From: Candidatus Segetimicrobium genomatis
GTDB taxonomy: Bacteria; Sysuimicrobiota; Sysuimicrobiia; Sysuimicrobiales; Kaftiobacteriaceae
Length of the DNA stretch: 22,367 nucleotides
Direction: 5' to 3'
NCBI GenBank assembly: GCA_005882335.1
Contig: VBAP01000005.1
Coordinates: forward strand, 53,217 to 75,583
The notes beneath the pieces were generated by a model, which saw only the letters and a list, made by a program, of their open reading frames with translations, did not search any database and was not told the DNA's origin. Numbering within the stretch: the first letter of the stretch is position 1; each line of letters begins with the position of its first letter. Shown here one piece after another: positions 7,896-22,367 of the stretch. The position numbers and the translations under genes were made by a program.

Positions 7896-8372
7896 GTGGC
7901 TGAGCAGAAGCTCGACCTTGACGAGATCCGCGCGGTGATCCGGATTGCCAGCGAGTCGCCCGACGTCGCCGAATTGGAAGTCGAGTCGCCCACGCTGAAG
8001 ATTTCCGTGAAGAAAGTCCCTGGCGGGGTACGCGCGGTCATTTCGCAGCCCGCCGGGAACCCGGTCGCGGTCCACTCTCCGCCGGCCCATCCGGCCCCGG
8101 CCGCACCCGCCGTGACCGGTGACCATCTGGTCCCCGTCACCGCCCCGATGGTCGGTACGTTCTTTCGCGCGGCCAAGCCCGACGCGCCGCCGTTTGTCAG
8201 CGAGGGCGACATGGTCGAGACCGGCCAGACGGTGTGCATCATCGAGGCGATGAAATTGTTCAACGAGATTCAAAGCGAGGTCCGCGGCCGCATCGTCCGC
8301 ATACTGGTCGAAAATGCCTCCCCGGTCGAATACGGGCAATCTTTGATGCTCGTCGATACGACGGCCCCCTAA
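7896..8372 (+). CDS. accB: Biotin carboxyl carrier protein (GTG start).
   Basis: C-terminal biotinyl domain with the EAMKLFNEI biotinylation motif and a Pro/Ala-rich linker. A GGGAGG Shine-Dalgarno sequence lies upstream. Confidence 0.9.
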   Translation: MAEQKLDLDEIRAVIRIASESPDVAELEVESPTLKISVKKVPGGVRAVISQPAGNPVAVHSPPAHPAPAAPAVTGDHLVPVTAPMVGTFFRAAKPDAPPFVSEGDMVETGQTVCIIEAMKLFNEIQSEVRGRIVRILVENASPVEYGQSLMLVDTTAP

Positions 8373-15592: not shown

Positions 15593-17392
15593 GTGACGGC
15601 ACGGAAGCCTGCCGCGCCGCCGGACAACGAGGAGCGTCCAGACTACTTCGCATTGCTGCGCGACCGCTACGATCTCACCGCGGTCCCCTTTACCGACCGC
15701 GCCAGCCGGTTGTTGCTGTTTCTGGATCCAGATCGAAAAGCGTTCCACGTCCGCGTCTCCGAACGATGGCCGCGGCTGGACTACGTGGAAGGCGACTACC
15801 GTACCCGCCGGCCGATCGTGCGCGATCTGCGTCCCACCGACGGCGACGGCCGGCCGCTGCCCTTCACCCTGACCAGCTTTCCGCACCGCGTCGAATTGGT
15901 CACCGAGCACGGGCCGTTTGCGATGGTCTTCGCCGACCCCGAGGTGTTGCTGATCACCGTGCCTCCAGGCCGTGTGGGGGTGCAGTGTCTGGTCCGCGCC
16001 GAACACGGCGCCGCGGACCGGCGAGGGGCGCACTTCCGAGGGGTGCGCAACGTGGCCCTGACTACGAATGCGCGCCTGCTCAGCAACGCAGTTGAACCGC
16101 AGGGCGTGCACTATCGTGTCGACCTGCGTGTGGACGCCGGGACGGACGCGGCGGTCTCGCTGAACATCACCCCGCGGCTGGGATTCAATCGCGGCCTGCA
16201 CCCGCAGGCGGCGCTCGCTGAGAGCGAGCACCAATGGCGGCGCTGGTTCGAGGCGGCCCCGCCGGTCCATTCCAGGTACCACCTCCCCTACTACTATGCC
16301 TGGTGGATCATGCGCGCCGGCCTGGTCAGCTCGCGATATTACCTAACCCGCGAAGCGATGGTCCCGTCCAAGGTCCGCTACGTGGGCGTGTGGCAGTGGG
16401 ACGCATTCTTTCACGCGCTGGCCTACCGCTACGTCGACCTCAGACTCGCCAGCGACCAGTTTCGCATCTTCATCGACCATCAACGCCCCGACGGGATGCT
16501 GCCCGACGCCGTCTACGATGAGGGGGTAATTGACCACCTGGCGTATCCCGTGGACGCGCCGGTCACCAAGCCGCCGATGGCGGCCTGGGCCGCATGGAAG
16601 GTCTACCAGACCACCGGGGATCTGGACTTCCTGGCGGAGATCTACGCCCCGCTGGTGCGGTGGAACGAGTGGTGGTTCACACACGCCGACGACGACCGCG
16701 ACGGCATCGCCCAGTATTCGCATCCCTTCTCGTCCGGTTTCGACGACAGCCCGCTGTGGGACGCCGGGATGCCGGTGGAGTCACCGGATCTCTCGACGTA
16801 CCTGTGCCTGCACATGGAGGCGCTGGCCGGGATGGCCGAGGCGCTCGGGGAAACCGAGGACGCTGTGAGATTCCGCGCCCGCGCCGACGACCTGGTCCCG
16901 CGGATGATCGAGCATTTCTATGATCCGCAGGCCGGGGTGTTTTGGGCCATGCGGCCGACCGACCAGGGGCACCGCCGCGTGGAGGTGCTCACCTCACTCA
17001 ACCTGTTCCCGCTGTGGACCGGCCGCCTGCCGCCCGCCGTGGCCCAGCGACTGGTGGATCATCTCACGAATCCGGAGGCGTTTTGGACGCGCTTTCCGAT
17101 CCCCAGCGTGGCCCGCAGTGATCCCGCGTTCAACCCCACCCAGATGTGGAGGGGCCCGGTCTGGGTCAACATCAATTACCTGTTTGTGGAGGCGTTGCAG
17201 CGGGCTGGATTTCCCGACCTGGCGCGGCAACTGTGTGACTCCACCCTGGACCTCGTCGCCGGGTCCGCCGACATGCGGGAATACTACCATCCCGAAACGG
17301 GACAGCCACCACCGCAGGCCGCACCCTGCCAGGGGTGGACCGCGGCCTGCTTTATCGATCTGGCGATCCGCCGCTCACGGGGGGAGGTGTAG
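15593..17392 (+). CDS. (alpha/alpha)6-barrel glycoside hydrolase, GH63-like. Candidate mannosylglycerate/glucosylglycerate-hydrolase-type enzyme (GTG start).
   Basis: 599 aa. The central region (GVWQWDAFFHALAY..., AWKVYQTTGDLDFLAEIYAPLVRWNEWW, SGFDDSPLWD) is typical of six-hairpin glycosidases. The exact family cannot be fixed without a search. Confidence 0.75.
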   Translation: MTARKPAAPPDNEERPDYFALLRDRYDLTAVPFTDRASRLLLFLDPDRKAFHVRVSERWPRLDYVEGDYRTRRPIVRDLRPTDGDGRPLPFTLTSFPHRVELVTEHGPFAMVFADPEVLLITVPPGRVGVQCLVRAEHGAADRRGAHFRGVRNVALTTNARLLSNAVEPQGVHYRVDLRVDAGTDAAVSLNITPRLGFNRGLHPQAALAESEHQWRRWFEAAPPVHSRYHLPYYYAWWIMRAGLVSSRYYLTREAMVPSKVRYVGVWQWDAFFHALAYRYVDLRLASDQFRIFIDHQRPDGMLPDAVYDEGVIDHLAYPVDAPVTKPPMAAWAAWKVYQTTGDLDFLAEIYAPLVRWNEWWFTHADDDRDGIAQYSHPFSSGFDDSPLWDAGMPVESPDLSTYLCLHMEALAGMAEALGETEDAVRFRARADDLVPRMIEHFYDPQAGVFWAMRPTDQGHRRVEVLTSLNLFPLWTGRLPPAVAQRLVDHLTNPEAFWTRFPIPSVARSDPAFNPTQMWRGPVWVNINYLFVEALQRAGFPDLARQLCDSTLDLVAGSADMREYYHPETGQPPPQAAPCQGWTAACFIDLAIRRSRGEV

Positions 17393-17395
17393 GCC

Positions 17396-17935
17396 GTGAG
17401 CTCCGATCAACTCGCGCGCCTGCGCGAGGCCGTGCAGGGGCTGGAGAATATCATCGCCATCGTGCTGATTCTCCTCGGCGCCGCCGTGGTGCTCCGGCTG
17501 TCGGTGTTGCTCATTCGCCGGACGCTCCTGGCCCGCACCGACCGGCTGCTAGACGAGACCCGGCGCCGTACGCTGCAGCCGCTCCTGGAGAGCCTGGTGA
17601 AGTACGTCGTGTACTTCATCGCCCTGGTCATGATTTTGCGCGAGTTGAACGTCGATGCTACCGCGATCCTGGCCAGCGCGGGCGCCGTGGGCCTGGCGGT
17701 GGGCCTTGGGGCCCAGAGCCTGATGCGGGACGTCATCGCCGGCTTCTTCCTCATCACCGAAGGCCTCATCCACGTCGGCGATGTTATTACGTTCGACGGT
17801 CACACCGGCACCGTCGAGCGCATCAGCATCCGCAAGACGCAAATCCGCACGGCCGGCGGAGAACTCTGGACGATCCCCAACGGGAAACTCGAGGTGTTCG
17901 GGAACAAAGGTCCAACCTCAGGAGCGTCTCGGTGA
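17396..17935 (+). CDS. MscS-family mechanosensitive channel homologue, C-terminally truncated at 179 aa (GTG start, 3 nt after the hydrolase stop).
   Basis: Three transmembrane helices followed by the conserved MscS core (LMRDVIAGFFLITEGLIHVGDVITFDGHTGTVERISIRKTQIRTAGGELWTIPNGK). The ORF stops ~20 aa later. The ~80-100-aa cytoplasmic vestibule domain is absent in all frames. Confidence 0.7.
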   Translation: MSSDQLARLREAVQGLENIIAIVLILLGAAVVLRLSVLLIRRTLLARTDRLLDETRRRTLQPLLESLVKYVVYFIALVMILRELNVDATAILASAGAVGLAVGLGAQSLMRDVIAGFFLITEGLIHVGDVITFDGHTGTVERISIRKTQIRTAGGELWTIPNGKLEVFGNKGPTSGASR

Positions 17936-18012
17936 AGGCTTCGGGTAAGACGAACGCGTGGAGAAGGGGAGCAAATCAGCTGGTCGAACCAGACTGCGTA
18001 GCAGGTCAGCTC

Positions 18013-18958
18013 ATGAGAATCCGCAACCTTAAACATTTCTATCCGGCGCTGAGTCTGCTGTTATTCTTAGTCGTGTTCACAACGGCGTGCGACATAGTTT
18101 CGTCGCCTGGGGCTTTCGACTCTCCGTTGTACGTGGCCAACTCCGGCGGCGACAGCATCACCATCTACGCCCCCTTCTCTAATGGCCCCGCCGCTCCTAT
18201 CCGCACTATCAGCGGGCTCACGAGTCCGTCCGGTGTGGCCGTGAACGCCGCGGGGGAAACCTTTGTCGCCAACTCCAGCACTAACAGCATCACAGTGTAC
18301 AGCCTTGGCGCCAACGGCAACGCCGCGCCCATCCGCACAATCAGCGGGCTTCTCACCCAGCTCGACAACCCCCAGGGGATCGCTCTGGATGCCGCCGGCA
18401 ACCTGTATGTCGCCAACGTCGGAACCACCACGCCCCCCACTCCCACCCCCAGTAGCATCACTGTCTACGGCCCTACCGCTACGAACAACGCCGCCCCTAT
18501 CAACAAGATCAGCGGAGCCAGTACCGGGCTCGACCACCCCCAGGGAGTACAGCATCACTGTCTACGGTCCAACCGCGACAGGCAACGCTCCCCCCATCCG
18601 AACCATCAGCGGGGCCAGTACCGGGCTCGCCAACCCTATTGGCGTGGGCCTGGATACCACCGTCAACCTCTATGTCGCTAATGCCGGCGGTACCACCAGC
18701 AGCATCACTGTCTACGCCCCTGGGATCAACGGCGACATGCCCCCTACCCGCACAATCAGTGGAACACTAACCGGGCTCGCCAGCCCACAGGGCGTGGTCC
18801 TCGATCCCACCGGGAGGCTCTACGTCGCTAACAACGGCACCCCACCCAGCATCACCGTGTACACCCCAGGCGCCATGAACAATGCTATCCCCATCCGCAC
18901 CATTACCGGGAGCGCCACTGGGCTCAGTCAGCCACTTTTCATTGCCCTCCGCCCTTAG
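18013..18958 (+). pseudogene. Beta-propeller-repeat lipoprotein (YVTN/NHL-like '...LYVAN.G..SITVY...PIRTISG' blades) with a lipoprotein-type signal peptide (MRIRNLKHFYPALSLLLFLVVFTTAC). The reading frame shifts by +1 at ~18544-18547, in a C5/G3 homopolymer context. The repeat blade at the junction is also about half-length.
   Basis: N-terminal 177 codons are in the frame of track ORF 17335..18681. C-terminal ~137 codons are in the frame of ORF 18263..18958. Both read as the same ~46-aa repeat family. 18013..18958 is 946 nt, which is 3n+1. Confidence 0.6.
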
Positions 18959-19011
18959 AGGACCAGCAACGTGGAGCGCAGCAGGGTCTGGCCGAGTCCA
19001 AGGGCGCAGCA

Positions 19012-19929
19012 GTGAAGATCCTGGTCACCGGCGGCGCCGGATTCATCGGTTCCCATGTGGTCGATGCCTATGTGGGCGCCGGGCACCAGATCGTGGTTGT
19101 CGACAATCTGACCACCGGCCGCCGGGAGCGCGTCAATCCCGCCGCGCAATTGTACGCAATCGACATCCGCAGTCCGGAGTTGCGCGACGTGTTCGAGCGC
19201 GAGCGCCCGGAAGTAGTCAATCACCACGCGGCGCAGGCGTCCGTGACGGCCTCGGTGGCCGATCCCCGCGTTGATGCCGAGATCAACGTGATGGGCACAC
19301 TGCATCTGCTGACGCTGTGTGCCCAATCTCGCGTCCGTCGCTTCGTCTTCGCCTCCACAGGCGGGGCGATCTATGGCAACCCGCAGCGCATCCCCGCAGA
19401 TGAGCAGCATCCCACGACGCCATTATCGCCGTATGGCATCCACAAGCTGGTCGGGGAGCACTATGTCCGCTACTTCGGATCAACGGGGATGACCTGGGCC
19501 ATCCTCCGCTACGCCAATGTGTACGGACCGCGGCAGGATCCGTTCGGCGAGGCCGGCGTGGTCGCCATCTTTACCCGGGCCATGCTGGACGGCAAAGCAC
19601 CGACCATCTTCGGGGACGGCAAGCAGACGCGGGACTTCGTGTACGTTGAGGACGTCGCCCGCGCCAATCTCCTGGCGACGGACGCAACGACGTCCGACCT
19701 GGCCAACATCGGCACCGGCGTGGAGACCTCGGTGAACGACATTGCCCGCCATCTCGCTTCCCTCACCGGCTTCCGGGGCGAACCCTTGCGCGTGGCCCCC
19801 CGCCTCGGTGAGGTGTATCGCATCGCACTAGACGCGTCGAAGGCGAAGCGCTGGCTGAGCTGGGGCCCGCAGACGTCCCTGATGGACGGTCTGCGAAAGA
19901 CCGCAGAGTGGTTCCAGAGTACTCGCTGA
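19012..19929 (+). CDS. NAD-dependent epimerase/dehydratase, extended SDR, UDP-glucose 4-epimerase-like (GTG start).
   Basis: Rossmann motif GGAGFIGSH and active-site YGIHK (Y-x3-K). 305 aa. Confidence 0.88.
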   Translation: MKILVTGGAGFIGSHVVDAYVGAGHQIVVVDNLTTGRRERVNPAAQLYAIDIRSPELRDVFERERPEVVNHHAAQASVTASVADPRVDAEINVMGTLHLLTLCAQSRVRRFVFASTGGAIYGNPQRIPADEQHPTTPLSPYGIHKLVGEHYVRYFGSTGMTWAILRYANVYGPRQDPFGEAGVVAIFTRAMLDGKAPTIFGDGKQTRDFVYVEDVARANLLATDATTSDLANIGTGVETSVNDIARHLASLTGFRGEPLRVAPRLGEVYRIALDASKAKRWLSWGPQTSLMDGLRKTAEWFQSTR

Positions 19930-19932
19930 GCC

Positions 19933-19960
19933 GTGATAAAGTCTGACTTGATACTATAAT
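19933..19960 (+). promoter_or_regulatory. AT-rich sigma-70-like promoter: GTGATA (-35), a 16-nt spacer and a perfect TATAAT at 19955-19960. The TATAAT is 6 nt upstream of the GTG at 19967, so the transcript is likely leaderless.
   Basis: Direct reading. The sequence 'ccgtgataaagtctgacttgatactataatcgaggc gtg' stands out in a high-GC background. Confidence 0.45.
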
Positions 19961-19966
19961 CGAGGC

Positions 19967-20239
19967 GTGGAAAGCAAACTGCTGCCAGGGCAGAATCTGA
20001 TCGAAACGGGTTTGCGGGACCTGGAGCGCGGCCGGGAGTCTGTCCCCGCACTGCTGGTTTCCGTTGGCGCGCCCCGCCTGCGGCGGTTGGGTTTTCGCAT
20101 CCCCCACGCCATCGTGTCCCCTGAGCGCCGCCTGTATGATTTCCTCGCCCGTGACGACTCTGACGCCGCGCACTCACGGTACAACGCGCTGATCCGGCGA
20201 CTCGTGAGCTTCGAACGGGCGGCGGAATGCGCGAGATAG
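19967..20239 (+). CDS. Small hypothetical protein (90 aa), the first gene of a two-gene cassette. It overlaps the downstream gene by 13 nt. It contains an R-x6-H segment (RLGFRIPH) and has no recognisable domain.
   Basis: ORF with GC-rich third positions starting right after the promoter. Its overlap with the next ORF is typical of coupled toxin-antitoxin-like pairs. Confidence 0.45.
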   Translation: MESKLLPGQNLIETGLRDLERGRESVPALLVSVGAPRLRRLGFRIPHAIVSPERRLYDFLARDDSDAAHSRYNALIRRLVSFERAAECAR

Positions 20240-20748
20240 CCGACTCGGATCGCATCCGCCGCTTTATGACTCACCTCGGTGCAGAAGCCGACGCCGAGAC
20301 CCGAGTGTACTTCACAGGAGGGGCGACCGCCGTCCTGCTCGGCTGGCGCCAGAGCACGATTGACGTCGACATCCTCATTGTTCCAGAGAACGATCGCTTG
20401 CTTCGGGCGATCCCGCGGCTGAAGGAAGAGCTCCGAATCAACGTCGAGCTGGCCTCGCCCCAAGACTTCATCCCGGTGCCGCCGGGCTGGGAAAGCCGGA
20501 GCCTGTTCATCGGCAGCGCGGGCAAGATCGCATTCTATCATTTTGACCCGTACGCACAGGCGGTGGCAAAGATCGAGCGCAGCCACGAGCAGGACCTGGA
20601 AGACGTCCAGGCGCTGATCCGGACCGGTTTGGTTGATCGGCGGCGCGCTCTGGAATACTTCCAGCGAATCGAACCGGAACTATATCGTTATCCTGCAATT
20701 GACCCGCGCTCATTCCGGCGGGCGGTGGAAGAAACCTTCCGAGTATGA
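20227..20748 (+). CDS. Minimal nucleotidyltransferase-fold protein (Pol-beta superfamily) with a C-terminal ~80-aa helical extension. 173 aa.
   Basis: Signature FTGGATAVLLGWRQSTIDVDILIV, that is, hG[GS]...x9-13...[ST]xDhDhhh. Followed by a beta-strand/helix segment (RINVELASPQD) typical of NTase cores. Confidence 0.65.
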   Translation: MREIADSDRIRRFMTHLGAEADAETRVYFTGGATAVLLGWRQSTIDVDILIVPENDRLLRAIPRLKEELRINVELASPQDFIPVPPGWESRSLFIGSAGKIAFYHFDPYAQAVAKIERSHEQDLEDVQALIRTGLVDRRRALEYFQRIEPELYRYPAIDPRSFRRAVEETFRV

Positions 20749-20983
20749 TTCCACAAGGCGTCGCGTTGATACGGCTGCTCTATGCAACCGGAAGGGAGGC
20801 GACCCGAATACCGCTACCCACGGGCAGTTCCCGACTAAGAACTGAAGCCACCTGAACCTCCCCAGAACCTGAAAGACCTCCTCGAAGGATCTTCGTTGAC
20901 AGGCTCGGATCGCCATTGCGAGATCCGGCATTCGCGCATTCGTGCGAATACGCGAATGGACTAGGAGTTTACTGTTTGGACGC

Positions 20984-21349
20984 AGCGGGCCATGCTGGAC
21001 GGCAAGGCGCCGACCATTTTCGGGGATGGGAAGCAAACGCGGGACTTCGTGTATGTCGAGGACGTCGCCCGCGCCAACCTGCTGGCGACGACAGCTCCAA
21101 CCTCCGATATGGCAAATATCGGCACCGGAACCGAGACGGCAATCAATGATCTGTACCGACACCTCGCCCAGTTGACCGGATTTGGCGCACAACCCGTATA
21201 TGCGTCCAAGCGGCCCGGTGAAGTCGACCGGATTGCGCTGGATCCCACGCGGGCCGCACGCTGGTTGCAGTGGAAGCCCGCAGACACCTCTGCTCGAAGG
21301 TCTACGCCGAACCGTTCAGGCATTTCAGCGCACGCAATCCCCACGGTAA
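20984..21349 (+). pseudogene. 5'-truncated, frameshifted remnant of a paralogue of the epimerase gene at 19012-19929. It matches the epimerase from codon ~189 to the end. The translation MLDGKAPTIFGDGKQTRDFVYVEDVARANLLAT is identical, and DNA identity is about 90%, with differences mostly at third positions. A 1-nt insertion near 21285 shifts the frame; the alternative frame then reads QTPLLEGLRRTVQAFQ, which parallels QTSLMDGLRKTAEWFQ.
   Basis: Direct comparison of 19574-19929 with 20984-21349. There is no homologous 5' half upstream of 20984. Confidence 0.8.
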
Positions 21350-21479
21350 CGCGCGCCATTGTCTCCCGATCCTCTCCCCGCTGCTGACTCCTCAAACCGA
21401 TCGATCTGCCGGAGAGGGGGTTCGGGGATCGCGATTGAACAGATAAATGGCTCTGTACTTTCAGATCGGGGGGCGTGAC

Positions 21480-21992
21480 ATGAAAGCGTTGCGTCTTCTC
21501 CTCGCAATTGCCTTCATCGTGACAGGAGCCACCCAGTCGTCTGAAGCGGTCGCTCGCCTGAAGCTCATGTCCTGCAAGGACATTGAGTCCGCCGACCTTG
21601 GTTCACAAGGACGTGGGCTCGTCCCTATTTCGTGCGCGAAGGAGTTCTCGGCCACCGATCCTTACGTCGTTTTGATTATTGACGTGCAAAATATCGACTT
21701 CGAAACAGGTGTGATCACAGAGATTCTGGATCCGGGGAGTATCGTCATTCACGCGCATTCATTTGCGATCAAGCCGCCACCGGGAAGTACATGGGCTCAC
21801 TACTGGCGGTGGTTTGTCTTGCCTCTGTCGGCCACTACGGAGCAGCTGGCGAATAAAGGCCCGTCGTTCCTATTCTCGACCGTCGCCGCGAAAGCAACAC
21901 CGCCGATCGCCGAGCGCCTGGGCGAATGGTCATTCGTGGCAACGCTCACATCTGGATCACCCGTGACCCACAAGTTCACATTGCGCCCGTAG
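21480..21992 (+). CDS. Hypothetical secreted protein with a signal peptide (MKALRLLLAIAFIVTGATQSSEA). Lower GC than the core genome.
   Basis: ORF 21447..21992. The internal ATG at 21480 is preceded by a G-rich Shine-Dalgarno-like stretch and gives a canonical n-h-c signal peptide. Confidence 0.5.
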   Translation: MKALRLLLAIAFIVTGATQSSEAVARLKLMSCKDIESADLGSQGRGLVPISCAKEFSATDPYVVLIIDVQNIDFETGVITEILDPGSIVIHAHSFAIKPPPGSTWAHYWRWFVLPLSATTEQLANKGPSFLFSTVAAKATPPIAERLGEWSFVATLTSGSPVTHKFTLRP

Positions 21993-22012
21993 GAGACCCG
22001 CCGGAATTCTGT

Positions 22013-22367
22013 CTAGGGTGCGATGGTCACGTTCACGCTGGTCGTCGCGCCAGCGGAAACTACAAATTGCGCAGGAGTCGTGCCTTTCTTTGCAGTCGGA
22101 ATGATCTTGGAGGCTGTGGCGCAGTAACTTCCGGCGGGCACAGCCGCAAAAATCGCCACGCCCACATTTGGGGGGGTGGGGCTGGTCTGAGCGGTCTGGA
22201 CGACTTGCGTGAGACCTGTGCAGGACGTTGTCCCTAACCACACGATAGCATCGGCCCCGCTGACAGGAAGATTTGTGACGTTGTCGAGAACGGTGACCCG
22301 GATCTGCCCGTAGCTGCTGGCCACCGTTGCGCCAACGGCGGACGCAGCATTGACCACGCCCCAGCCT
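22013..22367 (-). CDS. C-terminal fragment of a beta-rich, probably secreted or cell-surface protein. It is T/S/V/A-rich and Ig-like. Its start lies beyond the window end.
   Basis: Open minus-strand frame running to the window edge, with protein-like composition. Convergent with the preceding gene. Confidence 0.4.
   Translation of the reverse strand, partial: GWGVVNAASAVGATVASSYGQIRVTVLDNVTNLPVSGADAIVWLGTTSCTGLTQVVQTAQTSPTPPNVGVAIFAAVPAGSYCATASKIIPTAKKGTTPAQFVVSAGATTSVNVTIAP

Follow-up and report, generated by a model that had tools for sequence, protein, structure and literature searches.

How does a gene come to be followed, a kilobase downstream, by a second copy of its own end? The question is raised by a stretch of 22,367 nucleotides, here called the window, from Candidatus Segetimicrobium genomatis (contig VBAP01000005.1, positions 53,217 to 75,583 of the forward strand), in which an intact gene for a sugar-nucleotide epimerase is succeeded by a small operon (the cassette, or cargo) and then by a degenerate copy of the epimerase gene's 3' end (the remnant). 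A first reading of the locus, made from the sequence only, held that an insertion had brought in a replacement gene end and displaced the host's own. All of the structural elements it described were found, within 2 nt of where it had placed them, and the geometry it proposed is very probably correct: a foreign module with a replacement gene end entered the epimerase gene, displacing the host 3' end downstream. The remnant is of the host's type, while the replacement end is shared across hosts. To judge from comparison with related contigs, the module, 1,410 bp in length, entered where a 105-bp conserved block of the gene begins, by a reciprocal crossover within the block's opening 20 nt. The outcome would be a chimeric full-length gene (presumed to work), a cargo operon, and then the host's own 3' end, now apparently decaying. 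The locus is probably a case of gene-end displacement in an ordinary enzyme gene, with an operon encoding a DUF6036 protein, in an uncultivated soil lineage, and brought about by homologous recombination alone.

Two copies of a gene end and their parentage

The epimerase gene (19012-19929, plus strand) is complete, as had been read: its 305-amino-acid product, an epimerase/dehydratase of the short-chain dehydrogenase/reductase (SDR) type, gives full-length matches to the Pfam families Epimerase (E 5e-63) and GDP_Man_Dehyd. The second copy (20986-21349, plus strand) begins at an offset of 1410 nt from the corresponding point of the first and comprises only the last ~118 codons, ending in the restored frame with the TAA at 21347-21349. 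It still matches Epimerase and GDP_Man_Dehyd (E ~2e-9). The sequence-only reading had placed its start at about 20984 and given it the last 115 or so codons, figures that needed slight correction; the repeat itself is real. The second copy does lack the 5' half of the gene, as claimed, and does carry a +1 frameshift, which is due to one extra C in the run at 21275-21277 (GGAAGCCCGCAG in the window and in contig L009, GGAAGCCGCAG in contigs L001 and L010). The frameshift is strain-specific: the sister contig L001 has an open remnant reading frame (ORF) of 118 amino acids. For annotation, the lesson is that when a short "epimerase" ORF trails a full-length one, it may be a gene end that has been displaced. 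Epimerase C-terminal fragments of ~115-130 amino acids found elsewhere were considered as possible recurrent remnants and discarded, the two that were checked on long contigs (P0021 and P0025) being frameshift-split genes in long-read assemblies.

The two copies can be aligned at the level of DNA, and a BLASTN E value of 1e-44 excludes chance resemblance. The similarity is unevenly distributed. Over the first 105 nt, 95 of 105 positions are identical (90%) and all 10 differences are synonymous; over the next 186 nt, identity is 58%, and over the whole repeat it is 68%. The identity of about 90% reported at first therefore describes the opening block and not the repeat as a whole. Proportions of synonymous (pS) and nonsynonymous (pN) differences, calculated by the Nei-Gojobori method, are 0.37 and 0 in the first block and 0.77 (saturated) and 0.29 in the rest. 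With synonymous divergence saturated outside the first block, the copies must be anciently diverged alleles rather than products of a recent duplication in place.

Which of the two, then, belongs to the host? The contigs available for comparison (denoted by L and a number) are metagenome contigs of 1-15 kb. Sliding-window identity to two of them, L010 and L011, reveals a change of parentage along the epimerase gene at 19576-19595. The 5' two-thirds of the gene (segment A, 19012-19575, plus strand) is host-derived, of L010 type: it matches L010 at 93-98% over 19020-19320 and 19500-19590, less well in a divergent patch between (19320-19500), and L011 at only 75-80% over 19012-19400, climbing to ~87% over 19400-19575. 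Diagnostic bases of L010 type stand directly upstream of the change. The gene then ends with a segment, X' (19596-19929, plus strand), that is always linked to the cassette and appears to be an imported replacement for the gene's 3' end. By its Pfam match it is the C-terminal domain of an SDR epimerase, not a toxin domain. Over gene nt 670-915, the X' segments of the window, L011, and L117 are mutually 97-98% identical, and X' is 58-67% identical to cassette-free alleles. L010 has an uninterrupted epimerase gene (protein P0124), whose 3' end is only ~62% identical to the functional 3' end in the window. The remnant is 94.5% identical to that end of the L010 gene (L010 1314-1657) and only ~58-62% identical to the window's own functional 3' end; over nt 670-915, the remnant and L010 are 91% identical, the remnant and X' 58%, and the X' class and the L010/remnant class 58-61%. 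L011, L117, and L121 have 5' gene halves 75-85% identical to that of the window, then match it at 95-100% from 19576 through the 3' end, ORF90 (the first gene of the cargo), and most of the DUF6036 gene (the second). It follows from these reciprocal identities that the remnant is the host's own gene end and that X' travels with the cassette.

The remnant and L010 differ mostly at third codon positions (dN/dS 0.024/0.185), so nearly all of their divergence arose while both genes were functional. The displacement of the host gene end would thus be recent relative to the divergence of the remnant from L010.

A search of the junctions for direct repeats had been proposed, and one was found. Both copies start with the same 20 nucleotides, CGGGCCATGCTGGACGGCAA (19576-19595 and, as an exact repeat, 20986-21005, both on the plus strand). 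This core is common to both copies and to all close alleles, those at empty sites included, and the remnant that starts with it opens with the 105-bp conserved block of the gene. In copy 1, host-type bases run to 19575 and foreign-type (L011-type) ones start at 19596; copy 2 is of L010 type from 21006. Since parentage switches on the two flanks of the 20-mer, the crossover lies inside it; in copy 1 the host type precedes the crossover and in copy 2 it follows, the reciprocal parentage that Campbell-type integration predicts. The inserted unit of 1,410 bp is made up of the core, X', a 24-bp gap, the operon, and a spacer. Its left junction (attL-type, in the terms of site-specific recombination) reads ...ATCTTTACC-core-AGCACCGACC and its right junction (attR-type) ...TTTGGACGCAG-core-GGCGCCGACC; the junction between spacer and core is identical in all 9 contigs that span it. 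A hypothetical circle or tandem array would have the attP-type junction ...TTTGGACGCAG-core-AGCACCGACC, and a restored empty site (attB), likewise hypothetical, would read ...ATCTTTACC-core-GGCGCCGACCATTTTCGGGGAT.

Empty and occupied sites in related strains

Empty sites, which one would hope to find in relatives if the locus had been correctly read, do occur there: in L010, L142/143, and L144-146. In L142/L143 (epimerase protein P0130), the order of genes is ABC ATPase, PGI, MscS, and epimerase, followed by a BsuPI gene and an S8 peptidase gene, both on the minus strand, with no cassette. The upstream order ABC ATPase-PGI-MscS-epimerase is kept in L142/143, L144-146, and L151/152. When the occupied L117 is compared to the empty L142, identity is 96-100% through the end of the core, 55-85% directly after it, and 93% from 54 nt before the L142 stop codon onward. 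Two full tandem epimerase genes in relatives, which the earlier reading had named as a sign of simple paralogue decay, were found in none of four related lineages (L010, L142/143, L144-146, and L151/152), each of which has a single gene. The NCBI annotation of the remnant protein names 'Bacillati bacterium ANGP1' as its source, and the host would belong to candidate phylum ANGP1 (Armatimonadota-like). The closest epimerases are those of Armatimonadetes-like soil metagenome-assembled genomes; a protein search of genome contigs gave a best match of 71% identity (Ca. Calidihabitans), too distant for an analysis of empty sites.

Occupied sites come in several forms. The exact DUF6036 and ORF90 proteins are encoded on ~20 short contigs, assembled independently from JGI, ENA, and Logan soil data, that share the layout of the window at 96-99% identity. 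The architecture of the window (type A: full cassette, spacer, and a remnant beginning at the core) is found with at least three 5' alleles: that of the window, that of L001 (45 mismatches in the 338 nt upstream, 0 in 825 nt of cassette), and an L142-like allele in L156. It is found also with at least three remnant alleles: the L010 type, the L150 type in L157 (240/240 identical), and a variant in L156. In L157, the remnant is of host type as soon as the bases beyond the core become informative. Because the same junction of spacer and core precedes several remnant alleles, the module has been placed before several different host 3' ends.

In types B, C, and D, the end of the DUF6036 gene, the spacer, and part of the remnant have been lost, with a different junction in each. 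DUF6036 is cut at amino acid 118 in type B (L011, L105, and L112), with the filler TAGAGGT; at amino acid 105 in type C (L117, L118, and L121), fused 54 nt before the epimerase stop codon with 2 nt of microhomology; and at amino acid ~48 in type D (L155), fused 165 nt before the stop. Types C and D both occur in an L142-like background and cannot be derived from one another, so a fuller ancestor must have existed in that background too. Among them, co-occurring soil strains preserve the gene end of the donor type, the host end in its displaced position, unoccupied sites, and no fewer than three variants with secondary deletions.

L151/L152 represents a different situation. Here epimerase, ORF90, and a decayed DUF6036 gene are collinear with window positions 19009-20259 at a uniform 76.7% identity, and there is no remnant. 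The 3' end of this epimerase gene is 74% identical to the X' class, as against 58-67% to any other class. Since the collinearity extends at the gene's own level of divergence, the linkage of X' to the cassette is old and chromosomal.

The C-terminal, substrate-binding third of the epimerase (nt 670-915) falls into deeply diverged allele classes (L010, L142, L144, L152, and X'), with nucleotide identities of 58-67%, while the 5' part of the gene (nt 1-540) is 74-88% identical among the same lineages. This split could reflect diversifying selection or long-standing allele classes. To go by the sequence, the exchange of the substrate-binding third for an allele only ~60% identical might change the enzyme's specificity for its sugar nucleotide.

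Routes by which the module may have entered

The mechanism we favor is Campbell-type homologous integration without an integrase. We give it about an even chance and rank it above site-specific integration. A single reciprocal exchange between the chromosome and a circle bearing the gene's end without its 5' part would leave the layout seen here, a full-length chimera, the insert, and a copy cut off at the start of the circle's homology; either a site-specific enzyme or RecA could carry it out. On the favored view, the module would derive from the chromosome of a related lineage that natively has the ORF90-DUF6036 operon behind an epimerase gene of the X' class. A piece reaching from the middle of the gene to just past the operon would have circularized, and a single (Campbell) crossover of the RecA type would have joined the circle to the host gene at the one place in its 3' third conserved enough for pairing. 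The structure would then have spread, and later homologous exchanges in that block would have rearranged its flanks among strains that occur together. The cargo would perhaps act like a pair of the toxin-antitoxin or addiction type. No dedicated recombinase would be involved at any step.

Several observations are in keeping with this route. Pfam scans of the cargo ORFs and of every large ORF in the 22-kb window turned up no integrase and no transposase, which bears out the earlier remark that the cargo carries neither. In L151/L152, a cassette lies beside the same allele class at the same divergence and with no remnant, which suggests recombination of a piece of chromosome rather than the arrival of a dedicated element. 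The longest exact runs between divergent alleles all fall within gene nt 562-660, so homologous crossovers must concentrate there. The core is an exact run of 20-23 nt, among the three longest between divergent alleles, and for L142 versus X' it is by far the longest in the block. Breakpoints vary within the 105-bp block: the window and L117 switch in the core, L001 switches at ~19672-19680, and L004 and L150 are mosaics of other kinds.

There is an experimental precedent in E. coli, where linear DNA carrying only the 3' end of lacZ was recircularized and integrated by a recA-dependent single crossover (PMC3240628). Part of the lacZ end was duplicated in 56 of 60 clones, and 4 of 60 arose through homology-facilitated illegitimate recombination, the Campbell route being far the commoner (PMC3240628). 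The product resembles the locus in having a restored gene, foreign DNA, and a duplicate of the gene end truncated at its 5' side, and no site-specific recombinase was needed to make it. However, lacZ was a laboratory construct with ~1 kb of identical homology, whereas the locus would record a natural event, in a block of ~105 bp at 90% identity between alleles otherwise ~60% identical, and integration at the locus, unlike that at lacZ, was followed by spread through a wild population.

A second precedent is the displacement of C-terminal ends at rhs loci, at loci for contact-dependent inhibition of growth (CDI), and at effector-immunity loci of type VI secretion systems (T6SS) (PMC5361080, citing Jackson 2009 and Koskiniemi 2014). 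There, as here, a conserved 5' anchor acquires a new 3' end together with linked downstream genes, and the old end is orphaned along with a piece of the conserved region. The present gene differs in encoding an ordinary SDR sugar-nucleotide epimerase, in being linked to the ORF90-DUF6036 pair rather than to a cognate immunity gene, and in having a single displaced remnant per contig, never an array of successive orphans. Gene-end displacement has so far been described mainly for polymorphic toxin loci, and it is met here in an ordinary enzyme gene. The locus also bears on the spread of small toxin-antitoxin-like or defense-like operons that lack mobility genes, a process that is poorly understood and of which this is a natural, population-level example with every junction readable.

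Some facts sit uneasily with Campbell integration. The switch from host to module falls within the same core of 20-23 nt in at least two backgrounds (the window, of L010 type, and L117, of L142 type), and the window allele offered two other exact runs of 17-20 nt in the block. Given those alternatives, it is a little surprising, if homologous recombination acted alone, that the core was used repeatedly; the joint probability, roughly estimated, is rather low. The same module entered at least three different alleles, as a discrete mobile unit would. A native donor, in which X', cassette, and spacer are followed by DNA other than an epimerase remnant, was not found at high identity among the fetched contigs, nor was the source of the spacer traced among the fetched loci. 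The scheme also assumes the circularization of a chromosomal fragment. Finally, all of the comparators are short metagenome contigs, and linkage is visible over only 1-4 kb.

Integrative elements that use a coding gene as their target and restore it with a fragment carried at attP are familiar from E. coli icd, the site of e14 and phage 21. Integrase-less relatives are familiar as well: cis-mobilizable elements (CIMEs), such as those related to ICESt1 of Streptococcus thermophilus, are flanked by att sites and mobilized by a related integrative conjugative element. Perhaps, then, the module is a miniature site-specific element, CIME-like or a decayed integrative genetic element, with the 20-nt core as its att site, an attP that includes the gene's 3' end, and an integrase that acted in trans or has since been lost. 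We rate this as less likely than Campbell integration but still plausible. In integrative genetic elements, a fragment carried at attP restores the target gene and pushes the native one to the distal side of the insert (PMC7192596), and the locus has that standard architecture: an intact recombinant gene, cargo, a displaced native 3' fragment, a short exact direct repeat of 20 nt at both junctions, and empty sites in relatives. Site specificity would also account for crossovers in the core in two or three host backgrounds and for identical junctions before at least three remnant alleles, and the L150-type remnant allele is elsewhere itself followed by the cassette, which would fit a tandem array.

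Against a site-specific element stands, first, the absence of the machinery. The sequence-only reading had offered an integrating element, decayed or mobilized in trans, as one source of the pattern, and support for an integrase-driven mobile element was not found: no recombinase was found in the module or the window, and no integrase gene beside the site in any related contig, occupied or empty. The resemblance to CIMEs (direct repeats at both ends, no recombinase of its own, presence in several host backgrounds) therefore stops short of a cognate integrase-bearing element at the site in these short contigs, and membership cannot be claimed. No attP-type junction (...TTTGGACGCAG-core-AGCACCGACC) was found in ~160 fetched loci or in viral contigs. 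No excised form was found of the unit, whose length of only 1.4 kb also sets it apart from integrative genetic elements. Viral contigs gave no match to the 22-mer at the end of the spacer and no relative of DUF6036; an exact search of them for the core gave 3 matches, which were set aside as chance since they have no similarity to epimerase or cassette. By eye, dyad symmetry of the recombinase type in the core amounted to a weak CGGGCCA-TGC-TGGACGG (5/7), not counted as evidence. Second, the core is also the longest or joint-longest exact run for homologous pairing, and L001 switches at 19672-19680, outside the core. Third comes the cassette as it occurs elsewhere. In a distant relative, L152, the operon is native beside the same gene, with no remnant. 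Thirty other cassette loci outside the epimerase context were checked for flanking duplications of gene ends, and, save for a tandem duplication in L110, none of the 26 with both flanks comparable has one. As a family, then, the cassette does not replace gene ends.

A bolder version of site-specific entry would make the 1.41-kb unit an active, integrase-free miniature cassette that is excised as a circle and re-inserted at a 20-bp site in a conserved metabolic gene, always repairing the gene with its own 3' end and driven either by a recombinase acting in trans or by the cargo, one of whose products has a nucleotidyltransferase fold. We think this rather doubtful. If true, it would be a new way for small toxin-antitoxin-like or defense-like operons to move between genomes.

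The arrow of events might also be reversed. The cassette-bearing lineage may natively have had epimerase (with X'), cassette, and spacer, and the remnant would then be the tip of a fragment arriving from a cassette-free strain, aligned through homology of the genes downstream and joined on its left by an illegitimate event. Types B, C, and D, with different, illegitimate-looking right junctions, none derivable from another, are in favor of such a history, as is the native cassette without remnant in L152. But the window's host-type 5' part ends (19575-19595) at the very gene coordinate where the remnant begins (19576), and both halves are of L010 type. Homology-facilitated illegitimate recombination from the right would need two independent events at the same coordinate, where a single insertion into an intact allele suffices. 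Moreover, L117 versus L142 has the same pattern on both flanks, and there is no contig in which the spacer is followed by a sequence other than the remnant. We consider this history unlikely.

A history in which a tandem paralogue decayed, or the 3' end was duplicated in place, and the cassette was then inserted between the copies is compatible with the raw pattern of the window taken alone; it is very improbable given that no relative has two tandem epimerase genes, that pS between the copies is saturated outside the conserved block, and that each copy is matched at 91-98% identity in another strain, where the matching sequence is the only 3' end. The least credible explanation, an assembly chimera of two coexisting strains, would come naturally from metagenomic data and a visibly mixed population, yet it is excluded for practical purposes because the junction of spacer and core, a unique sequence across which the shared stretch is only 20 nt, far below an assembly k-mer, turns up, besides the window, in nine contigs that were put together independently from different JGI, ENA, and Logan samples.

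The cargo operon and the surroundings of the locus

The cargo between the two copies measures 1,056 bp (19930-20985), close to the ~1054 bp first estimated, and the promoter, the two overlapping small genes, and the lower-GC spacer that had been described within it were all found. The putative promoter for the operon (19933-19960, plus strand) has the form GTGATA-16-TATAAT and agrees with the consensus at 10 of 12 positions. ORF90 (19967-20239, plus strand) would encode a small protein of 90 amino acids, predicted to have five helices, and is the constant partner of the gene behind it, which encodes a DUF6036-family nucleotidyltransferase of 173 amino acids (20227-20748, plus strand; Pfam PF19502, E 1.7e-9). 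The two genes overlap by 13 nt. The spacer that follows (20749-20985, plus strand; 237 bp) forms the right-hand part of the imported module and has a GC content of 0.565, versus 0.65 for the whole window. In GC content and GC at third codon positions, the module cannot be distinguished from the host. The spacer is confined to contigs with the window's architecture, does not occur in other contexts of the cassette, and has no similarity to anything else in the window or the fetched loci. It contains an imperfect 30-nt palindrome (20929-20958, CATTCGCGCATTCG-TGCG-AATACGCGAATG) 27 nt upstream of its junction with the core, with a fold z-score of only -2.1. At its start (20757-20829), 12 substitutions and small indels set the window apart from every other contig of the same architecture, while the flanking cassette and remnant are nearly identical.

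The operon has a life apart from the epimerase. A scan of metagenomes with DUF6036 gave 50 loci at 44-100% identity, and in ~40 of the 50 the ORF90-DUF6036 operon has no epimerase gene adjacent to it. ORF90 adjoins DUF6036 in every related locus long enough to hold both genes, with the order reversed in 4. In L094-L097 (85% identity), homology to the window extends only over 19954-20754, that is, from the -10 element, which is retained at the left edge of the cassette in these unrelated contexts, to just past the stop codon. A search of plasmids found DUF6036 only on 4 Leptolyngbya megaplasmids (48% identity), where RefSeq labels the homologues DUF6036 family nucleotidyltransferase, and found no match to ORF90. 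One further locus, L110 (1-3995), has two ORF90-DUF6036 copies, the first truncated, on either side of a SLOG/YpsA-like gene and a VapBC-like pair. Each of the two copies is succeeded by a repeat of 484 bp at 93% identity, in a different duplicative rearrangement of the same cassette.

What might such an operon do? In its organization as a widespread, patchily distributed pair it resembles a toxin-antitoxin module. Like the nucleotidyltransferase toxin-antitoxin pairs (MNT-HEPN of type VII and AbiE of type IV), it consists of two small, overlapping, co-oriented genes, one with a nucleotidyltransferase fold, is scattered through unrelated contexts, and has repeatedly lost one partner. Unlike those pairs, it includes a protein, ORF90, with no resemblance in sequence or fold to HEPN, AbiEi, or any other known family, and there is no match in PADLOC or NCBIfam. 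The losses are all on one side. ORF90 is intact wherever DUF6036 is truncated: in types B, C, and D as described above, in L151/152, where DUF6036 has an internal deletion, and in L110 copy 1, where it is cut at amino acid ~85 (the lesions lie at L011 2216-2572, L118 93-470, L155 1321-1473, L152 ~8228-8330, and L110 774-1022). These truncations, at least five of them independent, suggest that DUF6036 is the costly or toxic partner of the pair.

Through ORF90 the locus draws attention to a very large uncharacterized family, with more than 6,900 homologues, no Pfam model, and a gene that always adjoins DUF6036. Homologues P0241-P0360 have H69, N73, R77-R78, and E83-R84 invariant. An AlphaFold2 model of ORF90 gives a confident five-helix fold with no match in the PDB, so ORF90 remains without family by sequence or by fold. 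The nucleotidyltransferase fold of DUF6036 is assigned by Pfam only, a single-sequence AlphaFold2 model of that protein being unusable (predicted local distance difference test score, pLDDT, of 45). Sequence searches of PADLOC, NCBIfam, and PDB with the cargo proteins and with a 181-amino-acid protein encoded downstream gave no match, nor did a search of positions 19000-22367 against Rfam.

That downstream protein (21447-21992) has a predicted signal peptide, a gene with a GC content of 0.564, and no match in Pfam. At the corresponding position, L010 and L142 have nothing or the BsuPI gene, and the segment would thus appear to be a second variable islet, between the epimerase gene and that of the S8 peptidase (C-terminus at 22013-22357, minus strand).

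The rest of the window is given over to housekeeping: AnmK, a SIS-domain protein, a beta-lactamase-fold protein, an HtrA-like protease, and AccD/A/B/C, besides a two-component system, an SPFH protein, the ABC ATPase, PGI, a GH63-like hydrolase, MscS, and an NHL-repeat protein. The gene of the last, a lipoprotein, lies upstream of the epimerase gene (17335-18958) and is split into overlapping ORFs (17335-18681 and 18263-18958) with internal repeats of ~147-150 nt; a frameshift or a collapse of repeats near 18560 could account for the split. Together, the genes for the GH63-like hydrolase and the NHL-repeat protein (15593-18958) adjoin the MscS gene in the window and in L144 and are absent from L142/143 and L151/152. 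Since their presence differs among relatives, the region upstream of the epimerase gene is also variable in the clade.

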